This document shows, one piece after another, positions 2,713-31,180 of a DNA stretch of 45,319 nucleotides. This stretch comes from an uncultured Gammaproteobacteria bacterium. GTDB lineage: Bacteria > Patescibacteriota > Microgenomatia > Levybacterales > UBA12049. A program made the translations under genes and the position numbers. The stretch lies in assembly GCA_964364105.1 (NCBI GenBank), contig CAYILI010000002.1, forward strand, positions 1 to 45,319, written 5' to 3'. Under the pieces are notes generated by a model. It had not been told where the DNA came from. It worked only from the letters and a program-made list of their open reading frames with translations, and made no database searches. How positions within the stretch are numbered: the stretch's first letter is position 1; each line of letters begins with the position of its first letter.

Positions 2713-3006
2713 TTGTTGTACACTAGCTTTGTGTATTATTTCTACATTCTCCGAAGTTTGAAAAACAAAAAACTTTACCTTGGCTTCACTCCAAATTTAA
2801 GAGAACGAGTTAAATCCCACAACGATGGAGAAAACAAAGCAACAAAACCATACGCTCCGTACGAATTAATCTATTATTCAGCGTTTAAAAATAAAACTGA
2901 TGCAATAAATTGCGAAAAATATTTCAAAACAACAGCTGGCTGGAAAAGATTAAATGCAATGCTTGAAAATTATCTTAATAAAAAGAAAAGTAATTTAGAA
3001 GTTTAA
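2713..3006 (+). CDS. Small GIY-YIG nuclease-family protein (UPF0213-like)
   Basis: YYFYILRS..KLYLGFT..LRERVKSHNDG matches the GIY-YIG pattern. The real start may be GTG at 2731 (VYYFYIL). Confidence 0.75.
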   Translation: MLYTSFVYYFYILRSLKNKKLYLGFTPNLRERVKSHNDGENKATKPYAPYELIYYSAFKNKTDAINCEKYFKTTAGWKRLNAMLENYLNKKKSNLEV

Positions 3007-5347: not shown

Positions 5348-5414
5348 ACATCCTGAGCTTGTCGAAGGATCCAGTAACCAACAGGAAAGATTCTTCGTTT
5401 CACTCAGAATGACA
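5348..5414. repeat. Dispersed GTCATYCTGAG..CGAAGRATC-type palindromic repeat, two inverted units
   Basis: ACATCCTGAGCTTGTCGAAGGATC (5348..5371) faces GATTCTTCGTTTCACTCAGAATGACA (5389..5414). About 17/25 positions are complementary by eye. Lies in the lemA-htpX spacer. Confidence 0.6.
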
Positions 5415-6317: not shown

Positions 6318-6400
6318 ATCCGTCTGAGCTTGTCGAAGGATCTACACATTGTCATTCTGAACTCGCTTGCAGTGAGCTTGCCGAATCTGTTTCAGAATCC
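6318..6400. repeat. Second copy of the GTCATYCTGA-type repeat family
   Basis: ATCCGTCTGAGCTTGTCGAAGGATC (6318..6342), then GTCATTCTGAAC...TTTCAGAATC (6351..6400) with ATTCTGAA/TTCAGAAT arms. Lies in the htpX-murT spacer. Confidence 0.6.
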
Positions 6401-6424: not shown

Positions 6425-7729
6425 ATGCTCAATTTATTTCTCATTTTTTTTGGTAAAATGTTTATTAACCTTAGTCGTCTTTTAAACCTGGGAAACGGAT
6501 CCACCTGGCCAGGCCACATCGCTTTAAAACTAAATCAAAATTTTATACGGCAAATGCTAGCTTCCCACCCCAAGGGTGCAAAGCTAAAGATTGTAATTAT
6601 TGCAGGAACCAATGGTAAAACCACCACGGGAAGACTTATTACCTCAGTTATAAGAGAAGATGGAAAATCCTATCTACAGAATAAAGCTGGAGCAAATCTG
6701 CTTAACGGTCTCGCATCTACCCTTATAAAAGGCGCTAGCCTTCCAAGGCCTGGCCTTGGAAGGCTAAACGTCAATTATTTGATTTTTGAGTGTGATGAAT
6801 ACGCTTTGCCTGAAGTTATTGATCAAACAAATCCCAATTATATAATATGCCTCAATCTTTTCAGAGACCAATTAGACAGATACGGCGAGATTGATTCAAT
6901 AACAAAAAGGTGGTCCGATTCGTTCAAGAATCTAACTTCGAAGACTACGCTTATTTTAAACTCAGATGATCCTCAAGTTTCATATCTTGGCAAAAATACA
7001 AAGGCCCTCGTTAAATACTTTGGGCTCTCAGAGATCGGTGAAAAAAACACCAAACATGGCGCCGATTCAATTTATTGCCCGAAATGCTCTGCAAATCTTG
7101 AATTTGAAAAAGTATTTTTTTCTCATCTTGGTATTTGGAAATGTCCAAAATGCAAGCTAAAACGCCCCACCCCGGATCATGACAAATCAAATACCTATCC
7201 CCTCCCGGGAACATATAATAAATATAATACGATCGCTGCATCTTTAGTTTTAAGTCTTGAAGAATTAAAAGAAGAAGTAATAAGAGACGCATTTAATAGG
7301 TTTTCTCCAGCTTTTGGAAGAGGTGAAAAAATAATTTATAAAGGAAAACATATCCAAATTTTTCTATCTAAAAATCCTACTAGTTTTAACGAATCATTAA
7401 GCACGGTTAAAGAGCTTGGAGGGAAAAATCTTGTAATTCTTTTAAACGATAAGATCCCAGATGGGCTTGATGTGAGCTGGATTTGGGATATAAATTTCGA
7501 AGAAATTTTAGAAAAAGATATGAATATTGGAATTTCAGGTGACAGAACTTATGACATGGCTGTGAGACTTAAATATGCGGGATTTTTTGCTCATCATAAT
7601 GAAAACGCTGAAACAATAATTGATAAGATGCTCGACTCCTTAGAAGCAGATGAAACTCTCTACTTCTTGCCAAACTATTCAGCTATGCTTGATATTAGAA
7701 AATTATTAACAGGTAGAAAAATACTATGA
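6425..7729 (+). CDS. murT: Mur-ligase-family protein MurT (lipid II isoglutaminyl synthase, ligase subunit)
   Basis: P-loop IAGTNGKTTT, LFRDQLDRYGEID, a Cys4 ribbon (CPKC...CPKC), and C-terminal DVSWIWDINFE / LPNYSAMLDIRK as in MurT. The start may lie a few codons downstream. Confidence 0.8.
   Translation: MLNLFLIFFGKMFINLSRLLNLGNGSTWPGHIALKLNQNFIRQMLASHPKGAKLKIVIIAGTNGKTTTGRLITSVIREDGKSYLQNKAGANLLNGLASTLIKGASLPRPGLGRLNVNYLIFECDEYALPEVIDQTNPNYIICLNLFRDQLDRYGEIDSITKRWSDSFKNLTSKTTLILNSDDPQVSYLGKNTKALVKYFGLSEIGEKNTKHGADSIYCPKCSANLEFEKVFFSHLGIWKCPKCKLKRPTPDHDKSNTYPLPGTYNKYNTIAASLVLSLEELKEEVIRDAFNRFSPAFGRGEKIIYKGKHIQIFLSKNPTSFNESLSTVKELGGKNLVILLNDKIPDGLDVSWIWDINFEEILEKDMNIGISGDRTYDMAVRLKYAGFFAHHNENAETIIDKMLDSLEADETLYFLPNYSAMLDIRKLLTGRKIL
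6562..6586 (-). repeat. Inverted copy of the RAYT-flanking REP-like repeat, inside the murT coding sequence
   Basis: TTCCCACCCCAAGGGTGCAAAGCTA contains CCACCCCAAGGGTG, the exact 14-nt reverse complement of the core at 16375..16388 and 17083..17096. Flanks are also similar. Confidence 0.6.
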
Positions 7730-16000: not shown

Positions 16001-16312
16001 TCTCTAACTAGTCACGACATTTCCCAGCTTGAAGAAGTGGTAGAGGGAAAATTTGTGACTGTGGGCGGAATAATTGAAACAACGCGCAAGATATTTACTA
16101 AAAAAACCGGAGCCGAGATGGCTTTTATTAATATAGCTGACGAAAAAGGAGTGACAATTGAAATAGTGGTATTTCCAAAAGTTTATGACCGACATAAAAG
16201 TCTTATCTCAACAGACTCACTGATAATTGTCGAAGGGAAGCTGGACACAAAAAATGACAGGCCGGTAATACTCGCTGAAAAAATCTCAACGATGAAATAT
16301 TCCCCAGCCTAA
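13094..16312 (+). CDS. dnaE: DNA polymerase III alpha subunit
   Basis: 1072 aa with an N-terminal PHP domain (FVHLHNHSEYSLLDG), a polymerase core (GPGRGSAAGSVVSYALGITDIDP, DIDLDF), HhH and a C-terminal OB fold. Confidence 0.95.
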   Translation: MADFVHLHNHSEYSLLDGLSKIDEMVAQAKALGMKALAITDHGNLYGAIKFYRACKEAGIKPIIGCEIYISRRTRHDKEAGLDSDSNHLILLAKNDTGYKNLMRIISIANLEGYYYKPRSDMELLKQYSEGLICLSACVNGYVSEPLLENQEETAEKRAKALSEIFGKDNFYLEIQKHLNVKKQDELNEKLIKLSRKLGIPLVATNDNHYVKNGDAEAQEVLLCIQTQSTLTTPNRKLSMIDSPDFYMKSSEEMTGLFIQTSDAVENTVKIADMCDLEIQLGKWIMPVFDVPDKTSSGDYLRKLVNIGLKKRYGEITEETNKRAEYELSIIIGKKYETYFLIVADFVRWAKSQGISVGPGRGSAAGSVVSYALGITDIDPFFFNLPFERFLNPDRPSAPDIDLDFADTRRDEVIEYVTKKYGKDKVAQIITFGTMEARGSVRDTGRAMGMPYSGPDRISKMIPPGWQGHAMTLDTALEQSPELKMAYSTESETKKLLDLARKTEGVARHASVHAAGVVIADKPLTDYTPLQKETNGDKVITQYDMYTVGEDGVGLLKMDFLGLRNLTIIEEALNFIKINKGVEIDLSTLPLDDKKTYDLLSEAETTGIFQLESAGMRRYIKDLKPTSIFDLMAMVALYRPGPMANIPEFIERKRDSSKIKLPDKRLEEALKQSYGMLVYQDDVLLTTIAIAGYTWLDADKFRKAMGKKIPAEMKKQKEQFMTGAVANGLSQKKAESIFNLIAPFAGYGFNKAHAACYATIAYRTGYLKANFPVEFMTALLTAESRGTTGPAKNEKIAQAIAECKRLNLTVLPPNINKSGRDFTIEEKTMTRFGLSAIKNVGEAAIANILENRDKGEFKSFEDFCKRVNLSTINKKTIESLIKAGAMDIFGNRAQLLSNYSDIIENVNRIKKNKMEGQSSLFGEESEEESIPKPQTVGDFSPNEKLAFEKEFLGFYLTSHPQMANLIAVKSLTSHDISQLEEVVEGKFVTVGGIIETTRKIFTKKTGAEMAFINIADEKGVTIEIVVFPKVYDRHKSLISTDSLIIVEGKLDTKNDRPVILAEKISTMKYSPA

Positions 16313-16363
16313 CGATTCCTAGACTTTAAATTATACTTTGAAATTATAAACGAATTTTTTTCC

Positions 16364-16388
16364 CTAGCTTGACACCCTTGGGGTGGAA
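16364..16388 (+). repeat. REP-like repeat, upstream flank of the RAYT gene
   Basis: CTAGCTTGACACCCTTGGGGTGGAA with a CACCC-TTG-GGGTG hairpin. A partial tandem copy, TTGACACCC, recurs at 16394..16402. Confidence 0.7.
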
Positions 16389-16393
16389 TTCTG

Positions 16394-16422
16394 TTGACAC
16401 CCACGGAAAATATGATTAATCT
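16394..16422 (+). promoter_or_regulatory. Candidate promoter for the RAYT gene
   Basis: TTGACA (16394..16399), 17 nt, TAATCT (16417..16422). The ATG at 16431 would then be nearly leaderless. Confidence 0.3.
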
Positions 16423-16430
16423 ATGATTAT

Positions 16431-17075
16431 ATGCCTTCAAGAACTGTCCCATTCGTAAACGGACAATACTACCACATATACAACCGCGGTGTAGAAAAAA
16501 GACCTATTTTTAACAGCAGAGTTGACCGACGTCACTTCATGAAAACAATTATTTACTACCAGCTAGAAGGCCCTAAACCAAAGCTTTCCAATTTCTTTAA
16601 GTATAAACTTTTTGAGCCAGATTATAATAAAAGAATAGTTGATATTGCTTGCTACTGTCTCATGCCTAATCACTTTCATTTTTTATTGAAACAGCTAAAA
16701 GATGGCGGGATCACAGAATTCGTAAGTAAATTAACCAATAGTTACACGAAATATTTTAACACCAAAGATAAAAGAATTGGGCCTTTATTTCAAGGGGAAT
16801 TTAAATCTGCATTAGTTGAATCTGAAGAACAGTTATTGCACGTTTCAAGATACATTCATTTAAATCCTTTAGTCTCTTATTTGGTAAAAGACCTTAATTC
16901 CTATGAATGGTCTTCTTATTTAGAATATATTAATGGAAATAAAGGTTTATGCGCTAAGGAAGATATTCTTTCTTTTTTCAAATCACCTGCTGAATATAAA
17001 CAATTTGTTTTAGATCAAGCTGATTACGGAATAACATTGGAAAACATCAAACATCAAATCCTTGAAGAAATCTAG
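16431..17075 (+). CDS. REP-associated tyrosine transposase-like protein (IS200/IS605 Y1 HUH superfamily, COG1943 type)
   Basis: HUH motif in CYCLMPNHFHFLLKQ, GPLFQGEFKS, and a catalytic-Tyr motif VSRYIHLNPL. The gene is bracketed by near-identical 25-nt repeats. Confidence 0.75.
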   Translation: MPSRTVPFVNGQYYHIYNRGVEKRPIFNSRVDRRHFMKTIIYYQLEGPKPKLSNFFKYKLFEPDYNKRIVDIACYCLMPNHFHFLLKQLKDGGITEFVSKLTNSYTKYFNTKDKRIGPLFQGEFKSALVESEEQLLHVSRYIHLNPLVSYLVKDLNSYEWSSYLEYINGNKGLCAKEDILSFFKSPAEYKQFVLDQADYGITLENIKHQILEEI

Positions 17076-17096
17076 CTTTACACCCTTGGGGTGGAA
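17072..17096 (+). repeat. REP-like repeat, downstream flank of the RAYT gene
   Basis: CTAGCTTTACACCCTTGGGGTGGAA, 24/25 identical to 16364..16388 in the same orientation. Its TAG is the RAYT stop codon. Confidence 0.7.
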
Positions 17097-17153
17097 AATA
17101 ACTAAACAGCTATATTTGCATAAAAAAATTCTTAACAATTAATATTCCCCATC

Positions 17154-20699: not shown

Positions 20700-22956
<2,257 letters not shown>

Positions 22957-22958
22957 AA

Positions 22959-23007
22959 TGTCATCCTAAACCTTTCGTTGTCATCCTGAACTTGTTTCAG
23001 GATCTCG
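22959..23007. repeat. Third locus of the GTCATCCTGA-type repeat (two tandem half units plus a hairpin)
   Basis: TGTCATCCTAAACC.. then TGTCATCCTGAACTTGTTTCAGGATCTCG. ATCCTGAA/TTCAGGAT form an 8-bp stem. Lies in the atpD-atpC spacer with no T-tract. Confidence 0.6.
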
Positions 23008-23032
23008 AAATAAATTCTGGGTAAAGAAACTT

Positions 23033-23446
23033 ATGAAATTAAGCGTAGACGTATTAACTCCCCAATCAAAAATTTTTTCTGGCGAAGCAGATGAAGTTTT
23101 AGTTCCAACTGTAAATGGTCAACTTGGCATTCTCCCAAACCACGTAGCACTTCTTACTCAAATTCTTCCAGGAGAATTAGAGATAAAAACTGGCGGTAAG
23201 TCCCAATTCGTCGCTATCATGGGCGGATATTTAGAAGTAGGAAATAATAAAGTAAATATTTTAGGAGATTATGCAGTTAGAGCTGAGGACATAGAAATCG
23301 CTAAAGTTGAACAAGCTAAAGTAAAGGCTGAAAAGATGAAACAAGAAAAAGTAAGTATAGAAGATATTGCTGGGATTGAAGCTGATCTTAGAAGATCAAT
23401 ACTTGAACTCAAAGTCGCCCAACGCCGCAAATCCCCCAGAAGTTAA
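23033..23446 (+). CDS. atpC: F1 ATP synthase subunit epsilon
   Basis: 137 aa with an N-terminal beta-sandwich (VLVPTVNGQLGILPNHVALLTQL-like) and a helical C terminus ending ..IEADLRRSILELKVAQRRKSPRS. Confidence 0.9.
   Translation: MKLSVDVLTPQSKIFSGEADEVLVPTVNGQLGILPNHVALLTQILPGELEIKTGGKSQFVAIMGGYLEVGNNKVNILGDYAVRAEDIEIAKVEQAKVKAEKMKQEKVSIEDIAGIEADLRRSILELKVAQRRKSPRS
23408..23427 (+). repeat. atpC-tail core repeat R1 (inside atpC itself)
   Basis: CTCAAAGTCGCCCAACGCCG, followed by CAAATCCCCCAGAAGTTAA (tail KSPRS, then stop). Confidence 0.85.
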
Positions 23447-23850
23447 TCCGAATCTCTTGTACCCTCTAGATAATCTAAATTTGTGTATGTTACTTCTAAT
23501 GTAGAGGTCCGTTTGTATAATTGTTCTTGCATTCGTCTAAGTTCGCCAATTCTATCATCCCCTATATCAAGCCCTTCTGCAGAGCCTAGGGTAAACTCCC
23601 ACGCCAGACTTGTTTGAATATGTGCCCGCTCTCTTTCACCAGTTACTAAATCTTCAACTGCTTTTCTTTGCGCTGGACTTAACAATGCTCCTTCCAAAAC
23701 TGACCTAGCTCTATCTATTCTAAGCTGGGTAAAGTCCACTTCATTCCCAGGCTGAAGAGCCTCCTCGCTAATTTCTGGCAAGACCTTCATCCCAGAACCT
23801 TGCGGTCTTCGAAACCTTTCAGTGATTTTTCTTCTTAAATCAATCTCCAC
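23443..23850 (-). CDS. Hypothetical protein (segment 1 cargo), no family recognised
   Basis: 135-aa ORF filling segment 1. Its stop (23443..23445) interlocks with the atpC stop TAA (23444..23446). Confidence 0.5.
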   Translation of the reverse strand: MEIDLRRKITERFRRPQGSGMKVLPEISEEALQPGNEVDFTQLRIDRARSVLEGALLSPAQRKAVEDLVTGERERAHIQTSLAWEFTLGSAEGLDIGDDRIGELRRMQEQLYKRTSTLEVTYTNLDYLEGTRDSD

Positions 23851-23923
23851 CCGGCAATTCTACAATTAAACGAAGACCTTTGCAATTAAAAATTACCATC
23901 AAGGAGATGGATATAAACTCAAA

Positions 23924-23943
23924 ATCAAACTCGCCCAACGCCG
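23924..23943 (+). repeat. atpC-tail core repeat R2
   Basis: ATCAAACTCGCCCAACGCCG, followed by AAGATCCCCGAGGAATTAG. In frame this reads LKIKLAQRR-RSPRN-stop. Confidence 0.8.
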
Positions 23944-23962
23944 AAGATCCCCGAGGAATTAG

Positions 23963-24385
23963 CTATTCACTGCTTGGAGGATTTGGAAGCTCAACGCCAC
24001 GCCCAGCATCATGATCTTCCCATGCCTGACCTAAACTATCTTCCAAATCAGGAACCACGCCAGAGTATCTTTCCCATGTTGGAGATGCAGCACTTCCAGC
24101 TCCAACTGGAGACATAATTTCGCCTTGAGGAGTTAATTCAGCTCCCCCTTCTGGCCCTATCAAACGGGCTTGGGCAACTCGCTCATTATAGCCTGGCATA
24201 GCTTCAGCAGCTACCCAGACTTCTTCAGCAGCTACAGTACCTAACTTCCACCTTGGATCATCTGGAGGAGATACTGGTTTACGCTTGCCATCTAATATGG
24301 CTTGACGTCCTTCTGCTACTCTCCTCTCAACTTCTACTCTTGGAGTATCTTTTATTGTTCTTCTATTACCTGGATCACCTTCCAT
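23963..24385 (-). CDS. Hypothetical acidic Pro/Gly-rich protein (segment 2 cargo), copy 1
   Basis: 140-aa ORF, no family recognised. An ORF with identical translation occurs at 25360..25782. Confidence 0.5.
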   Translation of the reverse strand: MEGDPGNRRTIKDTPRVEVERRVAEGRQAILDGKRKPVSPPDDPRWKLGTVAAEEVWVAAEAMPGYNERVAQARLIGPEGGAELTPQGEIMSPVGAGSAASPTWERYSGVVPDLEDSLGQAWEDHDAGRGVELPNPPSSE

Positions 24386-24430
24386 AATTAACTCAAATAT
24401 AGCACTTTTAAAGATTTTGTAAATATATCA

Positions 24431-24451
24431 ATCAAAAGTCGCCAACCGCCG
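24431..24451 (+). repeat. atpC-tail core repeat R3 (variant)
   Basis: ATCAAAAGTCGCCAACCGCCG, followed by CCTCCGACCTCGATAA. In frame this reads KVANRR-LRPR-stop. Confidence 0.8.
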
Positions 24452-24623
24452 CCTCCGACCTCGATAATTTGCTCCCATAATTTACTCTTTGAGGAAAGAT
24501 TTTTCGAAAATAAGATATTTGCTCAAAGTATACTACTATGTACTAACATACTTTATAATTAAACGAGCTTTAAATCACTTTCCCACTTTCCGTGTGGGAA
24601 CTCAGATTAAAAGCAGTGATCAG

Positions 24624-24704
24624 GAGTTTGCGGAAATCGAAGCACAACTTAGAAGAAGCTTACTCGAGCTTAAAGTCGCCCAACGCCGCAAAAGATCATC
24701 TTAA
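24624..24704 (+). pseudogene. Displaced atpC 3'-end remnant (last ~26 codons)
   Basis: EFAEIEAQLRRSLLELKVAQRRKRSS versus the atpC end DIAGIEADLRRSILELKVAQRRKSPRS. DNA similarity extends about 60 nt upstream of the core. The rest of track ORF 24489..24704 has no atpC similarity. Confidence 0.7.
24669..24688 (+). repeat. atpC-tail core repeat R4
   Basis: CTTAAAGTCGCCCAACGCCG, followed by CAAAAGATCATCTTAA (tail KRSS, then stop). Confidence 0.85.
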
Positions 24705-24761
24705 ATATTATTTCAAACCTATAGTTTGACATTAAGGCTAATTCTGATATAATCCGTCCCT

Positions 24762-25310
24762 ATGTCATACCACGAAGGAAGAATTTTTATTCAGGACCCT
24801 AGGACTAACATCGATCCCTATAGAAGATTTACGAGTCCCGGACATCTTGGCGAGGAATTCAATGTCAGATCAGACTCCGAACAAGATAATATTTTTACCA
24901 AGCTCGTAGATAGTGGAACAATTGGTCCGGAAAAGTACCCAAGAGCGCTTGATTTGTACGCAGGCGACGGTTCATGGGCTAGAAGATTCGTAGAACATGG
25001 CTGGGATCCTCAAAACGTAACCTGTATTGATAGAGACAGAACAGAAACACCATTAGTACCAGAGGCTAGATGGATTTATATGGATTTATTTTACCTTGCA
25101 GAATTTTTGAGAGAACATTATAGATTACCTGCCGGCGCTGAAGCACTTAGACACAGATGGGACTTGGTAGCAAGCTCCTACGGAGCAATTGTTGCAAAAG
25201 ATCCTCGAGCTGATCAACTTCTCTTGGCTCAGTTTTTTGTACGAAAAAAGGGTGCTATGATTGTTGAGCGAGATTTCAGTGTTAAAAAAGATGGCCGCCT
25301 ACCTAGGTAA
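24762..25310 (+). CDS. Methyltransferase-like protein (segment 4 cargo), divergent
   Basis: 182 aa. ALDLYAGDGSWARRFVEHGW..VTCIDRD resembles SAM-binding motif I of RsmD/amino-MTases (LDLFAGSG). IYMDLFY sits where motif IV DPPY/F would be. Confidence 0.45.
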   Translation: MSYHEGRIFIQDPRTNIDPYRRFTSPGHLGEEFNVRSDSEQDNIFTKLVDSGTIGPEKYPRALDLYAGDGSWARRFVEHGWDPQNVTCIDRDRTETPLVPEARWIYMDLFYLAEFLREHYRLPAGAEALRHRWDLVASSYGAIVAKDPRADQLLLAQFFVRKKGAMIVERDFSVKKDGRLPR

Positions 25311-25320
25311 GACAATCGAG

Positions 25321-25340
25321 CTCAAAGTCACCCAACGCCG
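25321..25340 (+). repeat. atpC-tail core repeat R5
   Basis: CTCAAAGTCACCCAACGCCG, followed by AAGATCCCCGAGGAATTAG. The downstream sequence is the same as after R2. Confidence 0.85.
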
Positions 25341-25359
25341 AAGATCCCCGAGGAATTAG

Positions 25360-25782
25360 CTATTCACTGCTTGGAGGATTTGGAAGCTCAACGCCACGCC
25401 CAGCATCATGATCTTCCCATGCCTGACCTAAACTATCTTCCAAATCAGGAACCACGCCAGAGTATCTTTCCCATGTTGGAGATGCAGCACTTCCAGCTCC
25501 AACTGGAGACATAATTTCGCCTTGAGGAGTTAATTCAGCTCCCCCTTCTGGCCCTATCAAACGGGCTTGGGCAACTCGCTCATTATAGCCTGGCATAGCT
25601 TCAGCAGCTACCCAGACTTCTTCAGCAGCTACAGTACCTAACTTCCACCTTGGATCATCTGGAGGAGATACTGGTTTACGCTTGCCATCTAATATGGCTT
25701 GACGTCCTTCTGCTACTCTCCTCTCAACTTCTACTCTTGGAGTATCTTTTATTGTTCTTCTATTACCTGGATCACCTTCCAT
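25360..25782 (-). CDS. Hypothetical acidic Pro/Gly-rich protein, copy 2 (translation identical to 23963..24385)
   Basis: Lies within the 518-bp duplicate 25331..25848, offset 1397 bp from 23934..24451. Confidence 0.5.
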   Translation of the reverse strand: MEGDPGNRRTIKDTPRVEVERRVAEGRQAILDGKRKPVSPPDDPRWKLGTVAAEEVWVAAEAMPGYNERVAQARLIGPEGGAELTPQGEIMSPVGAGSAASPTWERYSGVVPDLEDSLGQAWEDHDAGRGVELPNPPSSE

Positions 25783-25827
25783 AATTAACTCAAATATAGC
25801 ACTTTTAAAGATTTTGTAAATATATCA

Positions 25828-25848
25828 ATCAAAAGTCGCCAACCGCCG
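25828..25848 (+). repeat. atpC-tail core repeat R6 (variant, same as R3)
   Basis: ATCAAAAGTCGCCAACCGCCG, followed by AAGACACAGAAATTAA (tail RHRN, then stop). Confidence 0.8.
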
Positions 25849-25870
25849 AAGACACAGAAATTAATTAAAG

Positions 25871-27403
25871 TTATTTTATAATTATCCTAAATTTTGCAGA
25901 GCTATTATCATGACTTATTTGCTTGAAAACGTACTTCCCTAAAGAAAAAGTATCTCCATCTCCAAAAACAGGACCATTATCAAATGCTTCAAGCAAATAC
26001 GTGGGGCTACCTACTGCATTATTCCAAGAATGTATCATTGCCCCAGATCCAAGTCTATACGGACTGTTTTCATCATAACCTGATTTATCTCCTCGATATT
26101 CTATGTAAAAACTAGGATAATTTGGTATGTTAAACCTAATCAATCTAGGATTTATATCCCCTTCAAGTTTGTTAATCGTAAAAGTTCCACCCTCGGTTGT
26201 TGTAGTTATTGCTGATTTGGGCAAAATACCCAATTGCTTTAAATGTGGCCCATTCATTTCAGAAAGATTTATGCCCATAGCATCTGCCTTGTCGCCATAT
26301 TCGATAGCTTTGCCTGTACATGAAACAGGTGAAAGACAATCATTTTCTAATAATTTTGCATGATTTAATTTCAGATTATGTCCGATTTCGTGTGCCATAA
26401 CCCGCAGACTAAACTCTCCTATTCCTGTAACTGAAGGATTTCCCCCAAGTGTTCCTATTCCTCCATAATTACAACTGTTTTTAGAATATACAAAAATTAC
26501 TCCGTAAAATGATGTTGAAAAAGGGATGGGATCATAGTTACGCGCCCAAGAAATTAATTTATCGAAACCTTGGTCGCTGCAAATCTCACTAGAGCTAAAG
26601 GGGGTCTGAATCCAAGCATTAGCAACCTTTCCAGATATAGTAATTTTCCCATCTGATAAGGTTTTATAATACGTTCTTAGTGAATCACTACATGTTGGGT
26701 CACAAAAAAACTGCTTAAGCATTTGGCTTCTTGAATAAGGCGTAGTCCTATTGTCTGTAAAATTTATAGGAAGAACAGCAAATTTTTTAGTGCCCGTTGA
26801 AGCTGCAGTCTCCGTAACAGACAAAACAGATTTTATATCAGTGCTCTTAGCAACTAAATGATTTCCGATTTTGTATCCGGATACCGCAACTTTATCAATT
26901 GATTCCATTTTCTCCTCGTCAGGCATATTATCAAAAGAAACGCTAATTATTGAATCTGGAGTTTGAACAAAATATCCAGTTTTCTTAGTTCCGGTTTCAA
27001 AATTATCCGAATGATAAGGAACTAGGGTGCCTGTTAAATCTGCTTTTTCTTCAATTAAGAATCTCTGACTTAAAGGAAATGAGTTGCGAAGATCTGGATT
27101 CATTGCTTTACCTAGAAACTCTCGAGGATTATCATAAGCTAATTGTTCCATTAGCGTTCTCCTGTCCTCTAACACAAAACGGTTAACTCCTTGTTTATTC
27201 ATTCTATTGTTTTCAAGAACTTGAGTATTGAGAGAATCTATTGACATTTCTGCCGCCTGACTTCGTGTTTCTTGCTTTTGACTATTTGTTGACACAAAAA
27301 CGACGAGAGGAAGAAGCAAAAGGAGAATAATTGAGGAAAGAATTATTATTTTTTCTTTTGAAGAAATATCGTGGATATAGCCAGTGAATTCTTGAATACT
27401 CAC
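25871..27403 (-). CDS. Secreted or membrane-anchored zinc metalloprotease, metzincin/reprolysin-like (segment 6 cargo)
   Basis: 510 aa with an N-terminal signal anchor (IIILSSIILLLLLPLVVFV) and MAHEIGHNLKLNHA, an HExxHxxxxxH zinc motif. Confidence 0.75.
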   Translation of the reverse strand: MSIQEFTGYIHDISSKEKIIILSSIILLLLLPLVVFVSTNSQKQETRSQAAEMSIDSLNTQVLENNRMNKQGVNRFVLEDRRTLMEQLAYDNPREFLGKAMNPDLRNSFPLSQRFLIEEKADLTGTLVPYHSDNFETGTKKTGYFVQTPDSIISVSFDNMPDEEKMESIDKVAVSGYKIGNHLVAKSTDIKSVLSVTETAASTGTKKFAVLPINFTDNRTTPYSRSQMLKQFFCDPTCSDSLRTYYKTLSDGKITISGKVANAWIQTPFSSSEICSDQGFDKLISWARNYDPIPFSTSFYGVIFVYSKNSCNYGGIGTLGGNPSVTGIGEFSLRVMAHEIGHNLKLNHAKLLENDCLSPVSCTGKAIEYGDKADAMGINLSEMNGPHLKQLGILPKSAITTTTEGGTFTINKLEGDINPRLIRFNIPNYPSFYIEYRGDKSGYDENSPYRLGSGAMIHSWNNAVGSPTYLLEAFDNGPVFGDGDTFSLGKYVFKQISHDNSSAKFRIIIK

Positions 27404-27452
27404 TAACTAAATAATATGAAGTTTTAATCCTTATTGCAAGTTTCTCCTCGAA

Positions 27453-27475
27453 CTCAAAGTCACCCAACGCCGCCG
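27453..27475 (+). repeat. atpC-tail core repeat R7 (distal end of the array)
   Basis: CTCAAAGTCACCCAACGCCGCCG, followed by AAGACCTCAATAA. In frame this reads LLELKVTQRR-RRPQ-stop. Confidence 0.85.
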
Positions 27476-27531
27476 AAGACCTCAATAATTTGCCCTTTGG
27501 GGTGATATTTTTGTAAAATATACCTCAGTCC

Positions 27532-27568
27532 GCCGAAGTAACTCAGTGGTAGAGTAACTCTTTCGCCT
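27532..27568 (+). pseudogene. Truncated tRNA (5' half only, up to the anticodon loop)
   Basis: GCCGAAG-TA-ACTCAGTGGTAGAGT-A-ACTCT-TTCG aligns position by position with the 5' half of the adjacent tRNA-Thr. No anticodon 3' stem, T arm or acceptor 3' strand follows. Confidence 0.6.
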
Positions 27569-27578
27569 GCCCGCCATC

Positions 27579-27650
27579 GCCGACATAGCTCAGGGGCAGA
27601 GCAGCTGTTTCGTAAACAGCAGGTCGTTGGTTCGATTCCAACTGTCGGCT
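27579..27650 (+). tRNA. tRNA-Thr (anticodon CGU)
   Basis: Acceptor GCCGACA/TGTCGGC, D arm GCTCAGGGGCAGAGC, anticodon stem GCTGT/ACAGC with loop TTCGTAA, T arm GTTGG-TTCGATT-CCAAC. Confidence 0.9.
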
Positions 27651-27666
27651 CAAGATAAATAAAAAT

Positions 27667-29630: not shown

Positions 29631-31180
29631 AATTCTTTGTTGTTAGTATACACGGAGACGTTAGTCAAGTTATTCCGGTGAACTAATTTCCAGTATGAAA
29701 ATCTTCCGGGAAGTTCCGCATTCTGGGTAGCAATGTAATTAAATTTATCACCTTTCTTTACATAGCTTTCATGAATAAATGGAAAATCAACATAATATAA
29801 ATTATGAAATCCGAAAAGCAAAACTTTATCCGTGGGCTTTATGTTTTCCGCAAACCATCCGTTGGTGTCATAAAAATCTCCAAAATTAAAATTAAGATTT
29901 TTAGTTAAGAATTCACTCTTAGATTCTTGACCTAAAACGACAGGTAAATATCTGACATTTGCTACTGCCCTGTACCCGATCGTAACTACAAACACGAAAA
30001 GCACAATACCAATCAAATACTTTTTAAGATTTTTGTCATTTGTATAATGAATTACCGCTCCTGCGAGAATTGAGAATGCCGGCAAATACGGCAGGATAAA
30101 CCTCCCACCTCCGGTTTTAGGAGTAATTAACCAAATAATTAAAGCAATTAATGAGTAGACAGTTACAATTTTTAATTCTTTTCGCATTTTTTTAAAATAA
30201 ATAACTATCAACGGAAGGAAAATGAGATAAATTGGAGAAATTGGATCAGCAGATCTTAGAAATAAATTTATTAAGTCATTTATTGGATTCAAGAAGCTCC
30301 CTTCCAGTGGATATCCGCTAAAAATTGGGTAAATTGGATTCCCTGTCGTTATAAATGCATAAAAGAACCATGGAAGTGCTACTAAAAGTGCTACAGAACC
30401 AAACAGCAGTGAATTTTTTAAAGCAAGCTTTCTATCTTTTTCTAAATAGAAAATTAATAATCCAAAAATCGGTATACTTCCTAAGGCAATAAGCTTTACG
30501 CAGACCGCAAGTCCAACCAAAACTGAGGATTCTATCAGCATTGACGTTTTCCTTGTCTTAAGGAACTCTAAAAAGCCCCAAAGAGCCATAACTTCAAAGA
30601 AGGACCTTATTAAATCTACATAAGCGACCGTTGACTGCCATGCGACCACCAAACTCCCATAAAAAACGAGCACTGAAAGCATCGAAATTTTCTCGTCAAA
30701 ATATTTTCTGGAAATCTTGTAGACACATATGCTCGTTAAAATGCCAAATCCCCACTGAATTAGTTTTGGAATAATTTCGGATCCTGTCAAAAGCCCCGGA
30801 ATAAACAACATTTCCCCAAGCTTCGGCATGACAGAATAGTAAAAAAGTCCGCCATTTATATAAAACAGTCTTCCTTCTTCTATGAAAATCTTTGGAATTG
30901 TTAAGTGATACCAAAGAGCGTCAAAAGAAAGCTCTGGTGCTAGCGCTCCAACTAAATTTACTAGCGTAAGAACACCGAATAATGCTAAAAACGGCCTTAT
31001 TTTTTTATTTTTAAGATTCAATTTCGGCAAATCTTCTTTATGTTTCTTGAAATATAAATAGGCTCCCGCAATAAATATTAAAGAGGAAACTAAAACAGGT
31101 CCACGAGTTAAAGCTCCTAAAATTCCCAGAGAAAAAATAATATAACTATAGATTCCGATTAGAAAGGCTAGGGCAAACAT
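29618..31180 (-). CDS. Large polytopic membrane protein, ArnT/PMT-like (GT-C fold) candidate
   Basis: 520 aa. About 12 TM segments followed by a soluble C-terminal domain, an architecture shared with neighbouring paralogs. Confidence 0.5.
   Translation of the reverse strand: MFALAFLIGIYSYIIFSLGILGALTRGPVLVSSLIFIAGAYLYFKKHKEDLPKLNLKNKKIRPFLALFGVLTLVNLVGALAPELSFDALWYHLTIPKIFIEEGRLFYINGGLFYYSVMPKLGEMLFIPGLLTGSEIIPKLIQWGFGILTSICVYKISRKYFDEKISMLSVLVFYGSLVVAWQSTVAYVDLIRSFFEVMALWGFLEFLKTRKTSMLIESSVLVGLAVCVKLIALGSIPIFGLLIFYLEKDRKLALKNSLLFGSVALLVALPWFFYAFITTGNPIYPIFSGYPLEGSFLNPINDLINLFLRSADPISPIYLIFLPLIVIYFKKMRKELKIVTVYSLIALIIWLITPKTGGGRFILPYLPAFSILAGAVIHYTNDKNLKKYLIGIVLFVFVVTIGYRAVANVRYLPVVLGQESKSEFLTKNLNFNFGDFYDTNGWFAENIKPTDKVLLFGFHNLYYVDFPFIHESYVKKGDKFNYIATQNAELPGRFSYWKLVHRNNLTNVSVYTNNKELWYY

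Follow-up and report, generated by a model that had tools for sequence, protein, structure and literature searches.

How do single genes come to be stacked at the 3′ end of an essential housekeeping gene, and how do they move between strains and species, with no mobility gene beside them? We address this question in a window of 45,319 nucleotides from an uncultivated groundwater bacterium (the whole stretch of DNA that was analysed; contig CAYILI010000002.1, assembly GCA_964364105.1), in which the interval between atpC, encoding the epsilon subunit of ATP synthase, and a tRNA-Thr gene is occupied by an array of six small gene modules bounded by copies of the atpC 3′ end. We designate the copies R1 to R7 and the modules A, B, C, D, B′ and E (Table 1). 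The 146 homologues of AtpC are named Candidatus Levybacteria, within the candidate phyla radiation (CPR), whose bacteria have tiny genomes, few recognisable mobile elements and a poorly understood gene exchange. We conclude that the locus is very probably a hotspot at which a Candidatus Levybacteria lineage exchanges gene cassettes horizontally. Single, apparently self-expressed ORFan genes pass here between strains and between species at one defined spot that has no local mobility gene, the C-terminus of an essential protein being repeatedly replaced as a by-product, and its 20-nt core provides a marker for following such traffic in metagenomes.

Core repeats, junctions and alternative states of the interval

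An earlier reading of this DNA, made from the letters alone (the sequence-only reading), had described seven copies of the core in one orientation, and this description is correct. Five copies match the 19-mer TCAAAGTCGCCCAACGCCG with no more than a single mismatch, starting at 23409, 23925, 24670, 25322 and 27454, and the other two copies, R3 (24431) and R6 (25828), are indel variants of it, ATCAAAAGTCGCCAACCGCCG. All copies lie on the + strand within 23409-27472, where dinucleotide-preserving shuffles give 0.00 matches expected by chance. The rest of the 45 kb window, on either side of the interval from atpC to tRNA-Thr, contains no further copy, and the core is not a generic dispersed repeat. 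Each copy reads in the atpC frame through a short run of basic codons to a stop, as had been claimed, with a run length of 4-6 codons, and the stop-codon geometry proved exact: the open reading frame (ORF) of module A ends at 23443, its stop overlapping that of atpC in TTAA, the ORF of B ends at 23963, abutting the R2 tail stop, and that of E ends at 25871, 6 nt past the R6 tail stop. The further claim that each segment ends in a 20-80 nt mimic of the atpC tail was right in spirit, although the R4 copy is more precisely 65 nt at 78% DNA identity and, at the protein level, a 31-codon atpC fragment.

The junctions recur in other assemblies. A contig from Hainich groundwater (L001, ERZ1292617), from another sample and another assembler, matches window positions 22450-25385 at 99.97% and spans R1-R5; L002 (ERZ27247828) matches 25322-27404 at 99.8% and spans R5/R6; and the R5/R6 junctions are reproduced in L002, L003 and L004 at 99.6-100%. 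Junctions R1-R6 are thus found in independent assemblies and are not chimeric. Since L001-L004 reproduce them, we do not regard the array as an assembly artefact, and a chimeric or collapsed metagenome assembly across the short repeat is barely credible. Such an artefact would be in keeping with contigs of relatives that often end just past atpC, with the presence of module B twice at 99.6% identity, and with the absence of independent coverage for R7; however, the equivalent junction between an E homologue and a core is present in L124, and two-copy structures analogous to the array occur in L124, L126, L233 and L235. The array of separately exchangeable modules bounded by atpC 3′-end copies is genuine.

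Comparison with about 20 related loci reveals a hypervariable interval, with about 12 arrangements between atpC and the tRNA-Thr/Glucodextran_B-domain gene. In L208, L209 and L212, atpC has one core copy and is followed directly by a HAD-Hint_2-YcaO gene series, a cassette-free state. L125 carries an E homologue before the same series, L124 has its E homologue between two core copies, and in L126 atpC is followed by a receiver-domain gene (RR′), a second core-plus-tail copy, a 166-aa gene, HAD and an A homologue, whereas L210, L217, L226, L234 and L235 show still other genes. The HAD, Hint_2 and YcaO genes, which the window interval lacks, diverge like the core genome (73-95% at the amino acid level), and identity between genomes is only 43-48% for the cargo families E, RR and A: the A homologue of L126 stands at 47%, at another position, and the E homologues directly 3′ of atpC in L124 and L125 at 43-45%. 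Because relatives show alternative and cassette-free states, the objections that the sequence-only reading had raised against itself fall away.

Differences of the same kind separate close strains. L213 matches the window at 99.93% over 1422 nt up to position 23422, inside the core, and then continues with a different tail, ERRKRSS, and a receiver-domain (RR) cassette, while L003 carries the RR cassette followed by core-B-core-E; together these contigs give a strain with atpC-RR-B-E in place of the window's atpC-A-B-C-D-B-E. In L233, from another species, an atpC 3′ end 78.6% identical to that of the window is followed by B at 94% nucleotide identity, a core copy and a D homologue at 66%, and the mosaic breaks at the cores. 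Module B is accordingly seen in four left contexts (after A, after D, after RR and after the atpC of another species) and three right contexts, with identical ends in all four. These sequences indicate that module B has crossed a species boundary at least once, and that modules are gained, lost, duplicated and replaced between strains. Exchange between copies was also expected to swap the tail of AtpC, and ten tails indeed follow ...ELKVAQRR among AtpC proteins at least 90% identical (113-125 of the first 125 residues shared with the window): RSTRN, KRN, RSPRN, KSPRS, KRSN, RRSS, KRSS, KRIS, KRTS and RSPRS.

Origin of the repeats and mechanism of exchange

The repeats are pieces of atpC 3′ ends, 20-96 nt long, that match atpC alleles of other Levybacteria. 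The R4 unit (24609-24704) translates to KSSDQEFAEIEAQLRRSLLELKVAQRRKRSS and a stop, matching the C-termini of the P0106/P0109 group including the tail KRSS; R7 together with 10 nt upstream and its RRPQ tail matches the L217-type atpC end; and the R3 tail with the following TAATTTGC resembles, at 82%, the R7 tail with its native downstream sequence. Every tail in the window occurs elsewhere as a genuine AtpC tail, and the tail of the RR cassette in L213 is written in common AGA codons. These matches show the repeats to be genuine fragments of foreign atpC alleles, not evolved attC-like sites. A transposase target-site duplication was considered as their source and rejected, because the copies on the two sides are not alike and the tails have homologues in other atpC alleles. 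The tail of B and that of L208 both encode RRRSPRN with different codons; its retention through synonymous changes points to selection at the protein level, and this tail is probably not junk. Internal copies can decay, as seen in a 1-nt deletion in the B tail of L002/L003.

The core is unusual in its codons. LKVAQRR is written CTC AAA GTC GCC CAA CGC CGC; this genome uses four of the five codons CTC, GTC, GCC, CGC and CGC at only 8-12% each, and the series as a whole has a joint probability of 2.7e-6. GAA CTC AAA GTC GCC is invariant in at least four lineages, and the 13 codons before it vary freely at synonymous sites; L226 and L227 have common codons at the atpC end and no repeats. Wider searches returned little: three chance matches only to the core among viral contigs, in contigs of 63-66% GC; 119 single chance matches, in unrelated high-GC genomes, from a genome-collection scan with AAASTCRCCMAACGCCG, a short and degenerate pattern; and, from a metagenome scan with the generic patterns of an AtpC alignment, best loci at most 54% identical, which were uninformative.

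The GC-rich block GAA CTC AAA GTC GCC CAA CGC CG contains the break points or has them at its margin, so that atpC stays intact and receives whichever tail follows the exchange point. In the four contexts of B, the bases at core positions 1, 7 and 10 go with whichever cassette stands to the left, and the tail goes with B itself; this puts the exchange right of core position 10, and the L213 break requires an exchange left of core position 13. An overlap at positions about 10-12 fits both B and L213 only if the AACCGCCG variant shared by R3 and R6 arose by conversion. In a third group (L124-L126 and L208-L232), a species-specific tail, RTPRN versus RSPRN, precedes differing cassettes, which suggests exchange after the stop. 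The left ends of the units are likewise scattered, at -74, -10, -6/-5, -3..0 and +1. The idea of serial site-specific integration, put forward in the sequence-only reading, is weakened by these results: the repeats are variable-length pieces of atpC alleles, and no single fixed crossover readily accounts for all junctions.

We propose, with a probability of roughly one half, that exchange is homology-guided and carried out by host functions on the short conserved block. A molecule bearing one atpC 3′ fragment and cargo would recombine once, in Campbell geometry, with the resident atpC end or an internal copy; this single crossover would duplicate the fragment, so that a hybrid copy stands at either end of the insert. 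Modules would be deleted when any two copies recombine and loop out the DNA between them, and an ordinary double crossover, from copy to copy or from atpC to the tRNA-side flank, would let relatives trade whole blocks of modules. The substrate for the host recombination or annealing functions would be DNA acquired from relatives, and the block would be the sole stretch conserved at the DNA level across species, kept uniform by frequent conversion. Simple one-sided homology-facilitated illegitimate recombination was rejected for the atpC side, where it would delete recipient DNA and not duplicate it, but the truncated tRNA-Thr of the right border is consistent with such a process.

Homology guidance is favoured by the apparently variable exchange points and the variable unit lengths, by the lack of repeats in L226 and L227 with their common codons, by the origin of every unit from a foreign allele, and by the lack of a structured site or a recombinase. 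Seven junctions folded as single-stranded DNA, on both strands, share no hairpin; of the 13 fold z-scores, 12 are within the range -1.6 to +1.1, and the remaining one (R4 region, minus strand) reaches -2.36. An 11-N6-8-11 dyad was found at none of the cores. No recombinase gene was detected in the array, its flanks, the other window ORFs (Pfam) or the related loci, nor in about 25 cassettes (window, L124-L127, L208-L213, L217-L219, L226, L233-L235). The sequence-only reading had stated that no integrase, transposase or resolvase lies in or beside the array; this stands for the immediate neighbourhood, but the window does contain a Y1 transposase (16431-17075). The whole core is homogenised, moreover, including the part left of any plausible crossover, unlike what site-specific exchange would produce, and similar scars at unrelated sequences (the tRNA-Thr border and the dnaE 3′ end, described below) speak for a more generic recombination process. 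We judge an integron- or phage-type integrase less likely than homology-guided exchange.

Several points weigh against homology guidance. Identical runs between the copies that flank one cassette measure only 8-14 nt (25 nt in L126), which is shorter than RecA of model bacteria requires. Eight of nine independent cassette right ends begin their atpC homology within ~10 nt of one position, a clustering more simply attributed to a sequence-specific enzyme than to breakpoints at random, although it can be argued that longer repeats are unstable and shorter ones unable to pair. The linkage of B, with tail to the right and core to the left in four contexts, is exactly what a defined crossover near the boundary between CGCCG and the tail predicts. 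The origin of the first modules joining cargo to an atpC fragment is left unexplained by homology-guided exchange, and, with 45 kb of the genome as basis, there may be an unlinked recombinase.

Such a recombinase is at the centre of the main alternative, one that we consider unlikely: an integron- or Xer-pdif-like cassette system, in which an unlinked chromosomal site-specific enzyme would recognise the ~20-nt non-palindromic core, treat the atpC copy as attI-like and the cassette copies as attC-like, and insert or excise single-gene circles. Cassette boundaries that are sharp and recurrent, as in the identical ends of B in four contexts, would follow naturally, as would the single orientation of all copies; the polymorphisms of the core follow the left cassette and the tail the right one, which is integron cassette geometry. 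A rare-codon core conserved at the nucleotide level across species, identity runs too short at 8-14 nt for classical homologous recombination, and tiny cassettes (0.24-1.6 kb) without mobility genes, as in integrons and pdif modules, add to this case. It is opposed by the lack of any recombinase gene in the window or the related loci, by a core without dyad symmetry, dif-like arms or single-strand fold, and by an exchange point that does not look constant (L213; the constant-tail group). Unit lengths of 20-96 nt, homogenisation of the core part left of the inferred crossover and analogous scars at unrelated sequences are equally hard to reconcile with it. A broader version, which we offer tentatively and with some doubt, is an undescribed gene-capture platform of Levybacteria, perhaps of the wider CPR, with the 3′ end of an essential gene as primary site, short non-palindromic atpC-end copies as cassette-borne sites and an unlinked, unknown recombinase; it would be integron-like with a different enzyme and site logic.

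The same repeats could, in principle, be the debris of serial integration at the atpC 3′ end by integrase-bearing elements, such as phages, integrative and conjugative or integrative and mobilizable elements (ICE/IMEs) or tycheposon-like elements, the cassettes being passengers without an integrase, akin to cis-mobilizable elements (CIMEs), and the autonomous element being gone from the sampled genomes. Direct repeats of a gene 3′ end with an element-supplied new end are the classical integrase footprint at tRNA and protein-gene ends, and stacking with partial target copies, newer ones pushing older ones inward, has been described for tycheposon islands. The most widespread tail type, RRPQ, stands at the far end of the array beside native sequence, as serial integration predicts, and modules A, B and D have a GC content above their surroundings. 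Yet about 25 cassettes from at least five lineages contain no integrase gene or recognisable remnant, core and cargo have no relatives on viral contigs, the modules are single genes and not multi-kb element remains, and left boundaries vary, as the exchange points appear to do. We accordingly regard this origin as quite improbable.

Cargo genes and other scars in the window

The cargo genes A, B, D, B′ and E run in the orientations -,-,+,-,-, and B and B′, 1397 nt apart, are 99.6% identical duplicates. A promoter-like (sigma-70-like) match lies just upstream of every cargo ORF start, so that the modules, 0.24-1.6 kb in size, look like self-contained expression units; these are consensus matches and no proof of function. 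The GC content of A, B and D is 0.43-0.50 against 0.33-0.40 around them. In large protein searches A, B and D proved to be lineage-restricted ORFans, with 3, 2 and 4 clusters (those of A among 1.8 billion representatives), and no viral relatives of A, D or E were found among viral contigs. Profile searches and structure prediction, which the sequence-only reading had recommended for the cargo, were partly informative: they gave the metalloprotease motif of E and the receiver domain of RR, and otherwise weak methyltransferase or nuclease hints (Pfam, PHROGs, NCBIfam, PADLOC). The product of D is a possible, unproven candidate for a Rossmann/methyltransferase-like fold. AlphaFold models of D (mean predicted local distance difference test score, pLDDT, 45) and A (pLDDT 60) were too poor for structure search, and an Rfam scan returned tRNA only. 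The gene-less segment C holds an AT-rich 11-8-11 inverted repeat, AAAGTATACTA CTATGTAC TAACATACTTT, at 24525-24554.

Table 1. Coordinates of the array and its borders in the window
Feature	Position	Strand	Details
atpC (F1 epsilon subunit)	23033-23446	+	last gene of complete atp operon; PF02823, 3.7e-26; 146 homologues
Core R1	23408-23427	+	then tail KSPRS and stop, 23428-23446; R1 and tail are the last 39 nt of atpC
Module A	23428-23923	cargo -	ORF 23443-23850, 135 aa, all-helical ORFan; tail on + strand
Promoter-like site of A	23885-23857	-	upstream of ORF 23443-23850
Core R2, ATCAAACTCGCCCAACGCCG	23924-23943	+	then tail RSPRN and stop, 23944-23962
Module B	23944-24430	cargo -	ORF 23963-24385, 140 aa, ORFan
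Promoter-like site of B	24423-24396	-	upstream of ORF 23963-24385
Core R3, indel variant ATCAAAAGTCGCCAACCGCCG	24431-24451	+	then tail LRPR and stop, 24452-24467
Segment C	24452-24668	+	no credible gene; PF00401 hint; left part a diverged copy of the region natively 3′ of atpC, right part from 24609 a foreign atpC 3′ fragment
Foreign atpC 3′ fragment, KSSDQEFAEIEAQLRRSLLELKVAQRRKRSS and stop	24609-24704	+	31 codons and stop; holds core R4 (24669-24688) and tail KRSS with stop
Module D	24689-25320	+	ORF 24762-25310, 182 aa, DLYAGDG motif
Promoter match of D, TTGACA-16-TATAAT	24726-24753	+	perfect (12/12 positions)
Core R5, CTCAAAGTCACCCAACGCCG	25321-25340	+	then tail RSPRN and stop, 25341-25359; junction present in L001
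Module B′	25341-25827	cargo -	ORF 25360-25782; second copy of B
Core R6, same indel variant as R3	25828-25848	+	then tail RHRN and stop, 25849-25864; B-E junction also in L002, L003
Module E	25849-27452	cargo -	ORF 25871-27403, 510 aa, N-terminal membrane segment, HEIGH zinc-metalloprotease motif
Promoter-like site of E	27439-27411	-	
Core R7, tail RRPQ and stop	27453-27488	+	then native tRNA promoter region
Promoter-like TTGCCC-18-TAAAAT in block TAATTTGCCCTTT	27490-27519	+	
Truncated type-1 tRNA-Thr 5′ half	27532-27565	+	to anticodon loop; 97% to intact L210 tRNA
tRNA-Thr(CGT), intact, type 2 allele	27579-27651	+	right border of variable interval

The only mobile-DNA enzyme found in the window is an IS200-type Y1 transposase (PF01797), 6.3 kb upstream of the array, in the region 16296-17152, with its ORF at 16431-17075 (+). 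Direct hairpin repeats of 25 nt, CTAGCTT(G/T)ACACCCTTGGGGTGGAA, border it at 16364-16388 and 17072-17096; within the window ACACCCTTGGGGTGGAA occurs only at 16372 and 17080, with a variant at 6563. The element is inserted inside the 3′ end of dnaE, where AATATTCCCCA (11 nt) is duplicated; the original dnaE tail now lies immediately before atpB, and the homologous tail that replaces it, SLTIPRL with its stop, corresponds to ILTQTRLGL and stop in L208. The insertion is absent in L125, L208 and L226.

This element raises a further explanation, HUH-driven capture, in which a Y1 transposase or a rolling-circle relative would make circles that include gene ends and re-enter by recombination, a model that resembles one proposed for ISCR (insertion sequence common region) elements in complex class 1 integrons. 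The transposase is clearly recognised (34.2 bits against a cut-off of 23) and is flanked by hairpin repeats, the dnaE insertion with its 11-nt duplication and homologous replacement tail has the architecture of the atpC modules, and L125, L208 and L226, where the transposase is absent, have few or no core repeats. Hairpins or REP-like (repetitive extragenic palindromic) sequences were seen at no cassette end, however; L124, L126 and L233 have arrays with no such transposase seen nearby; and IS200/IS605 elements are not known to capture flanking DNA, which also counts against the model. We consider it very improbable.

A second scar lies at the right border. Close relatives differ in their tRNA-Thr(CGT) gene, which exists in three alleles, and ahead of the intact gene there is a 5′ fragment of type 1 that measures 34 nt in the window (border 27532-27651) and 11-12 nt, each followed by unrelated inserts, in L208 (13560-13718), L234 (6185-6347) and L235 (1965-2095). 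A third scar of this kind is the 13-nt block TAATTTGCCCTTT, copies of which mark the ends of the HAD-Hint_2-YcaO segment, standing in relatives before HAD and before tRNA-Thr. A related observation is a block (T)AATTTGCCCTTT with a -35-like TTGCCC before HAD, after HAD and before tRNA-Thr (L125 12040-12080, 12760-12800 and 15150-15180; L126 2330-2360; L210 2350-2380 and 3060-3095; window 27486-27500). Recombination between its copies would delete HAD-Hint_2-YcaO and give the state of the window. The Hint_2-domain protein and YcaO form a pair conserved beside atpC in relatives (L208 11134-13366; L125 12886-15106) and may be a peptide-modification pair.

Other features were noted in passing. Between tRNA-Thr and the Glucodextran_B-domain gene, a GNAT acetyltransferase gene that the window lacks is present in L210 (3295-3870), L234 (6351-6902) and L235 (2099-2653); in L210 the start region of the downstream gene (ATGGATA...) is present to the left and to the right of this insert. 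An insertion found in sample ERZ27247828 separates the RR cassette from the core preceding B (L213 3200-3265; L002, reverse strand, 2087-2127). Its ends, CTGTACAAGATGAGGACATCGGTAACA and the complement of TGTTACCGATGTATCTCATCTTCTGCATAT, are inverted-repeat-like, and L213 and L002 both stop within it; it is probably an insertion sequence (IS) or a miniature inverted-repeat transposable element. The same site is uninterrupted in L003. A hairpin repeat, CTGAGCTTGTCGAAGGATC, flanks an M48 peptidase gene in two 100% identical copies (5353-5371 and 6324-6342), with a variant between atpD and atpC (22986-23004), and looks like a REP-like or terminator element. Just downstream of tRNA-Asp is a free-standing 97-aa ORF with a GIY-YIG nuclease domain (2713-3006, +).

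Comparison with known systems

If a dedicated recombinase does exist, the locus would represent a new cassette system in which the AtpC C-terminus is rewritten at every event. If there is none, it is a clear natural example of arrays arising from short-homology recombination, which bears on the origin of integron-like architectures and of genomic islands.

The label "integron-like" given in the sequence-only reading survives only as an analogy. Like integrons and clusters of attC sites lacking an integron integrase (CALINs), the array consists of tandem single-gene cassettes with a repeated site in one orientation; site polymorphisms go with the left cassette and the first bases after the site with the right one; and much of the cargo is ORFan. 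Single-gene cassettes also occur in varying order and context (RR-B-E versus A-B-C-D-B-E), as in integrons, and no integrase lies beside the array, as in CALINs. Yet no intI, attI or Pc was found at the array (Pfam of the window ORFs and synteny with annotated relatives), its sites are not imperfect palindromes, have no single-strand fold and are copies of a protein-gene 3′ end, translated at the first position, and its exchange point does not appear to be fixed. The cargo lies on both strands with promoter-like sites of its own, whereas integron cassettes are mostly promoterless, share one orientation and are driven from Pc.

Tycheposon islands of Prochlorococcus hold elements and remnants stacked at one tRNA gene, with partial copies between them and newer arrivals pushing older ones inward (bioRxiv 10.1101/2020.12.28.424599). 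The array shares the stacking at one conserved gene with partial copies, and strain-level gain, loss and duplication confined to the island; it differs in that the target is the end of a protein-coding gene, whose C-terminus is altered by each event, and in that its modules are single genes of 0.24-1.6 kb in which no integrase, replication module or remnant was seen. Integration at gene 3′ ends in general likewise leaves direct repeats of the target end around each insert, the insert restoring the gene end, and this is what we find, but with no integrase or remnant in about 25 stacked cassettes.

Streptococcal CIMEs are tandem segments without an integrase whose att copies derive from the 3′ end of a housekeeping gene and which are mobilised only in trans; they derive by decay from ICE/IMEs, measure several kb and can be assigned to a cognate integrase family. 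The array resembles them as a series of integrase-less tandem segments flanked by housekeeping-gene 3′-end copies, and differs in having no known cognate element and in "att" copies that vary in length and exchange point. The IS200/IS605 and RAYT-REP (REP-associated tyrosine transposase) systems differ in that the hairpin repeat ACACCCTTGGGGTGGAA is found at no cassette end.

Integrative mobile elements exploiting Xer at dif, and the pdif modules of Acinetobacter plasmids, are small modules without a recombinase that a host enzyme moves and that form tandem arrays. Our array lies at a peak of cumulative GC skew, which rises from ~2 kb to ~23 kb and then falls (a skew confounded with coding strand and based on 45 kb only), and at a flip of gene orientation, nearly all genes lying on the + strand to its left and on the - strand to its right; taken together, these features make a position at the replication terminus possible, and the array may lie there. 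The core, however, lacks the 11-6-11 architecture of dif, and the hypothesis that the cores are dif sites was rejected, the sole dif-like 28-mer of the window lying 2.3 kb off. This 28-mer, GGATTTCATAATTTATATTATGTTGATT (29785-29812, - strand), matches E. coli dif at 21/28 positions, with both inner arms and 5/6 central bases; as it lies inside a PMT_2 coding sequence and is not conserved in relatives, it is probably a chance match.

The minimal mobile element (MME) of Neisseria is characterised, in the account given in PMC3082526 (citing Snyder et al. 2007), by conserved flanking genes, strain-variable whole-gene cassettes and no mobility genes, and its incorporation is attributed there to homologous recombination after DNA uptake. 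Going by that account, atpC and the tRNA-Thr/Glucodextran_B-domain gene behave as such flanks, enclosing differing contents in about 12 arrangements. The break point between L213 and the window lies inside the atpC end, and homologous incorporation at the array is inferred only. By the definition as outlined in that source, MMEs are without internal flank repeats, whereas every module of the array carries a fragment of the left flank; the modules also stack, and the flank gene's own end is exchanged. The feature is best filed as a variant of the known island and cassette hotspots in a poorly understood phylum, set apart from MMEs by the flank fragment that every module carries.

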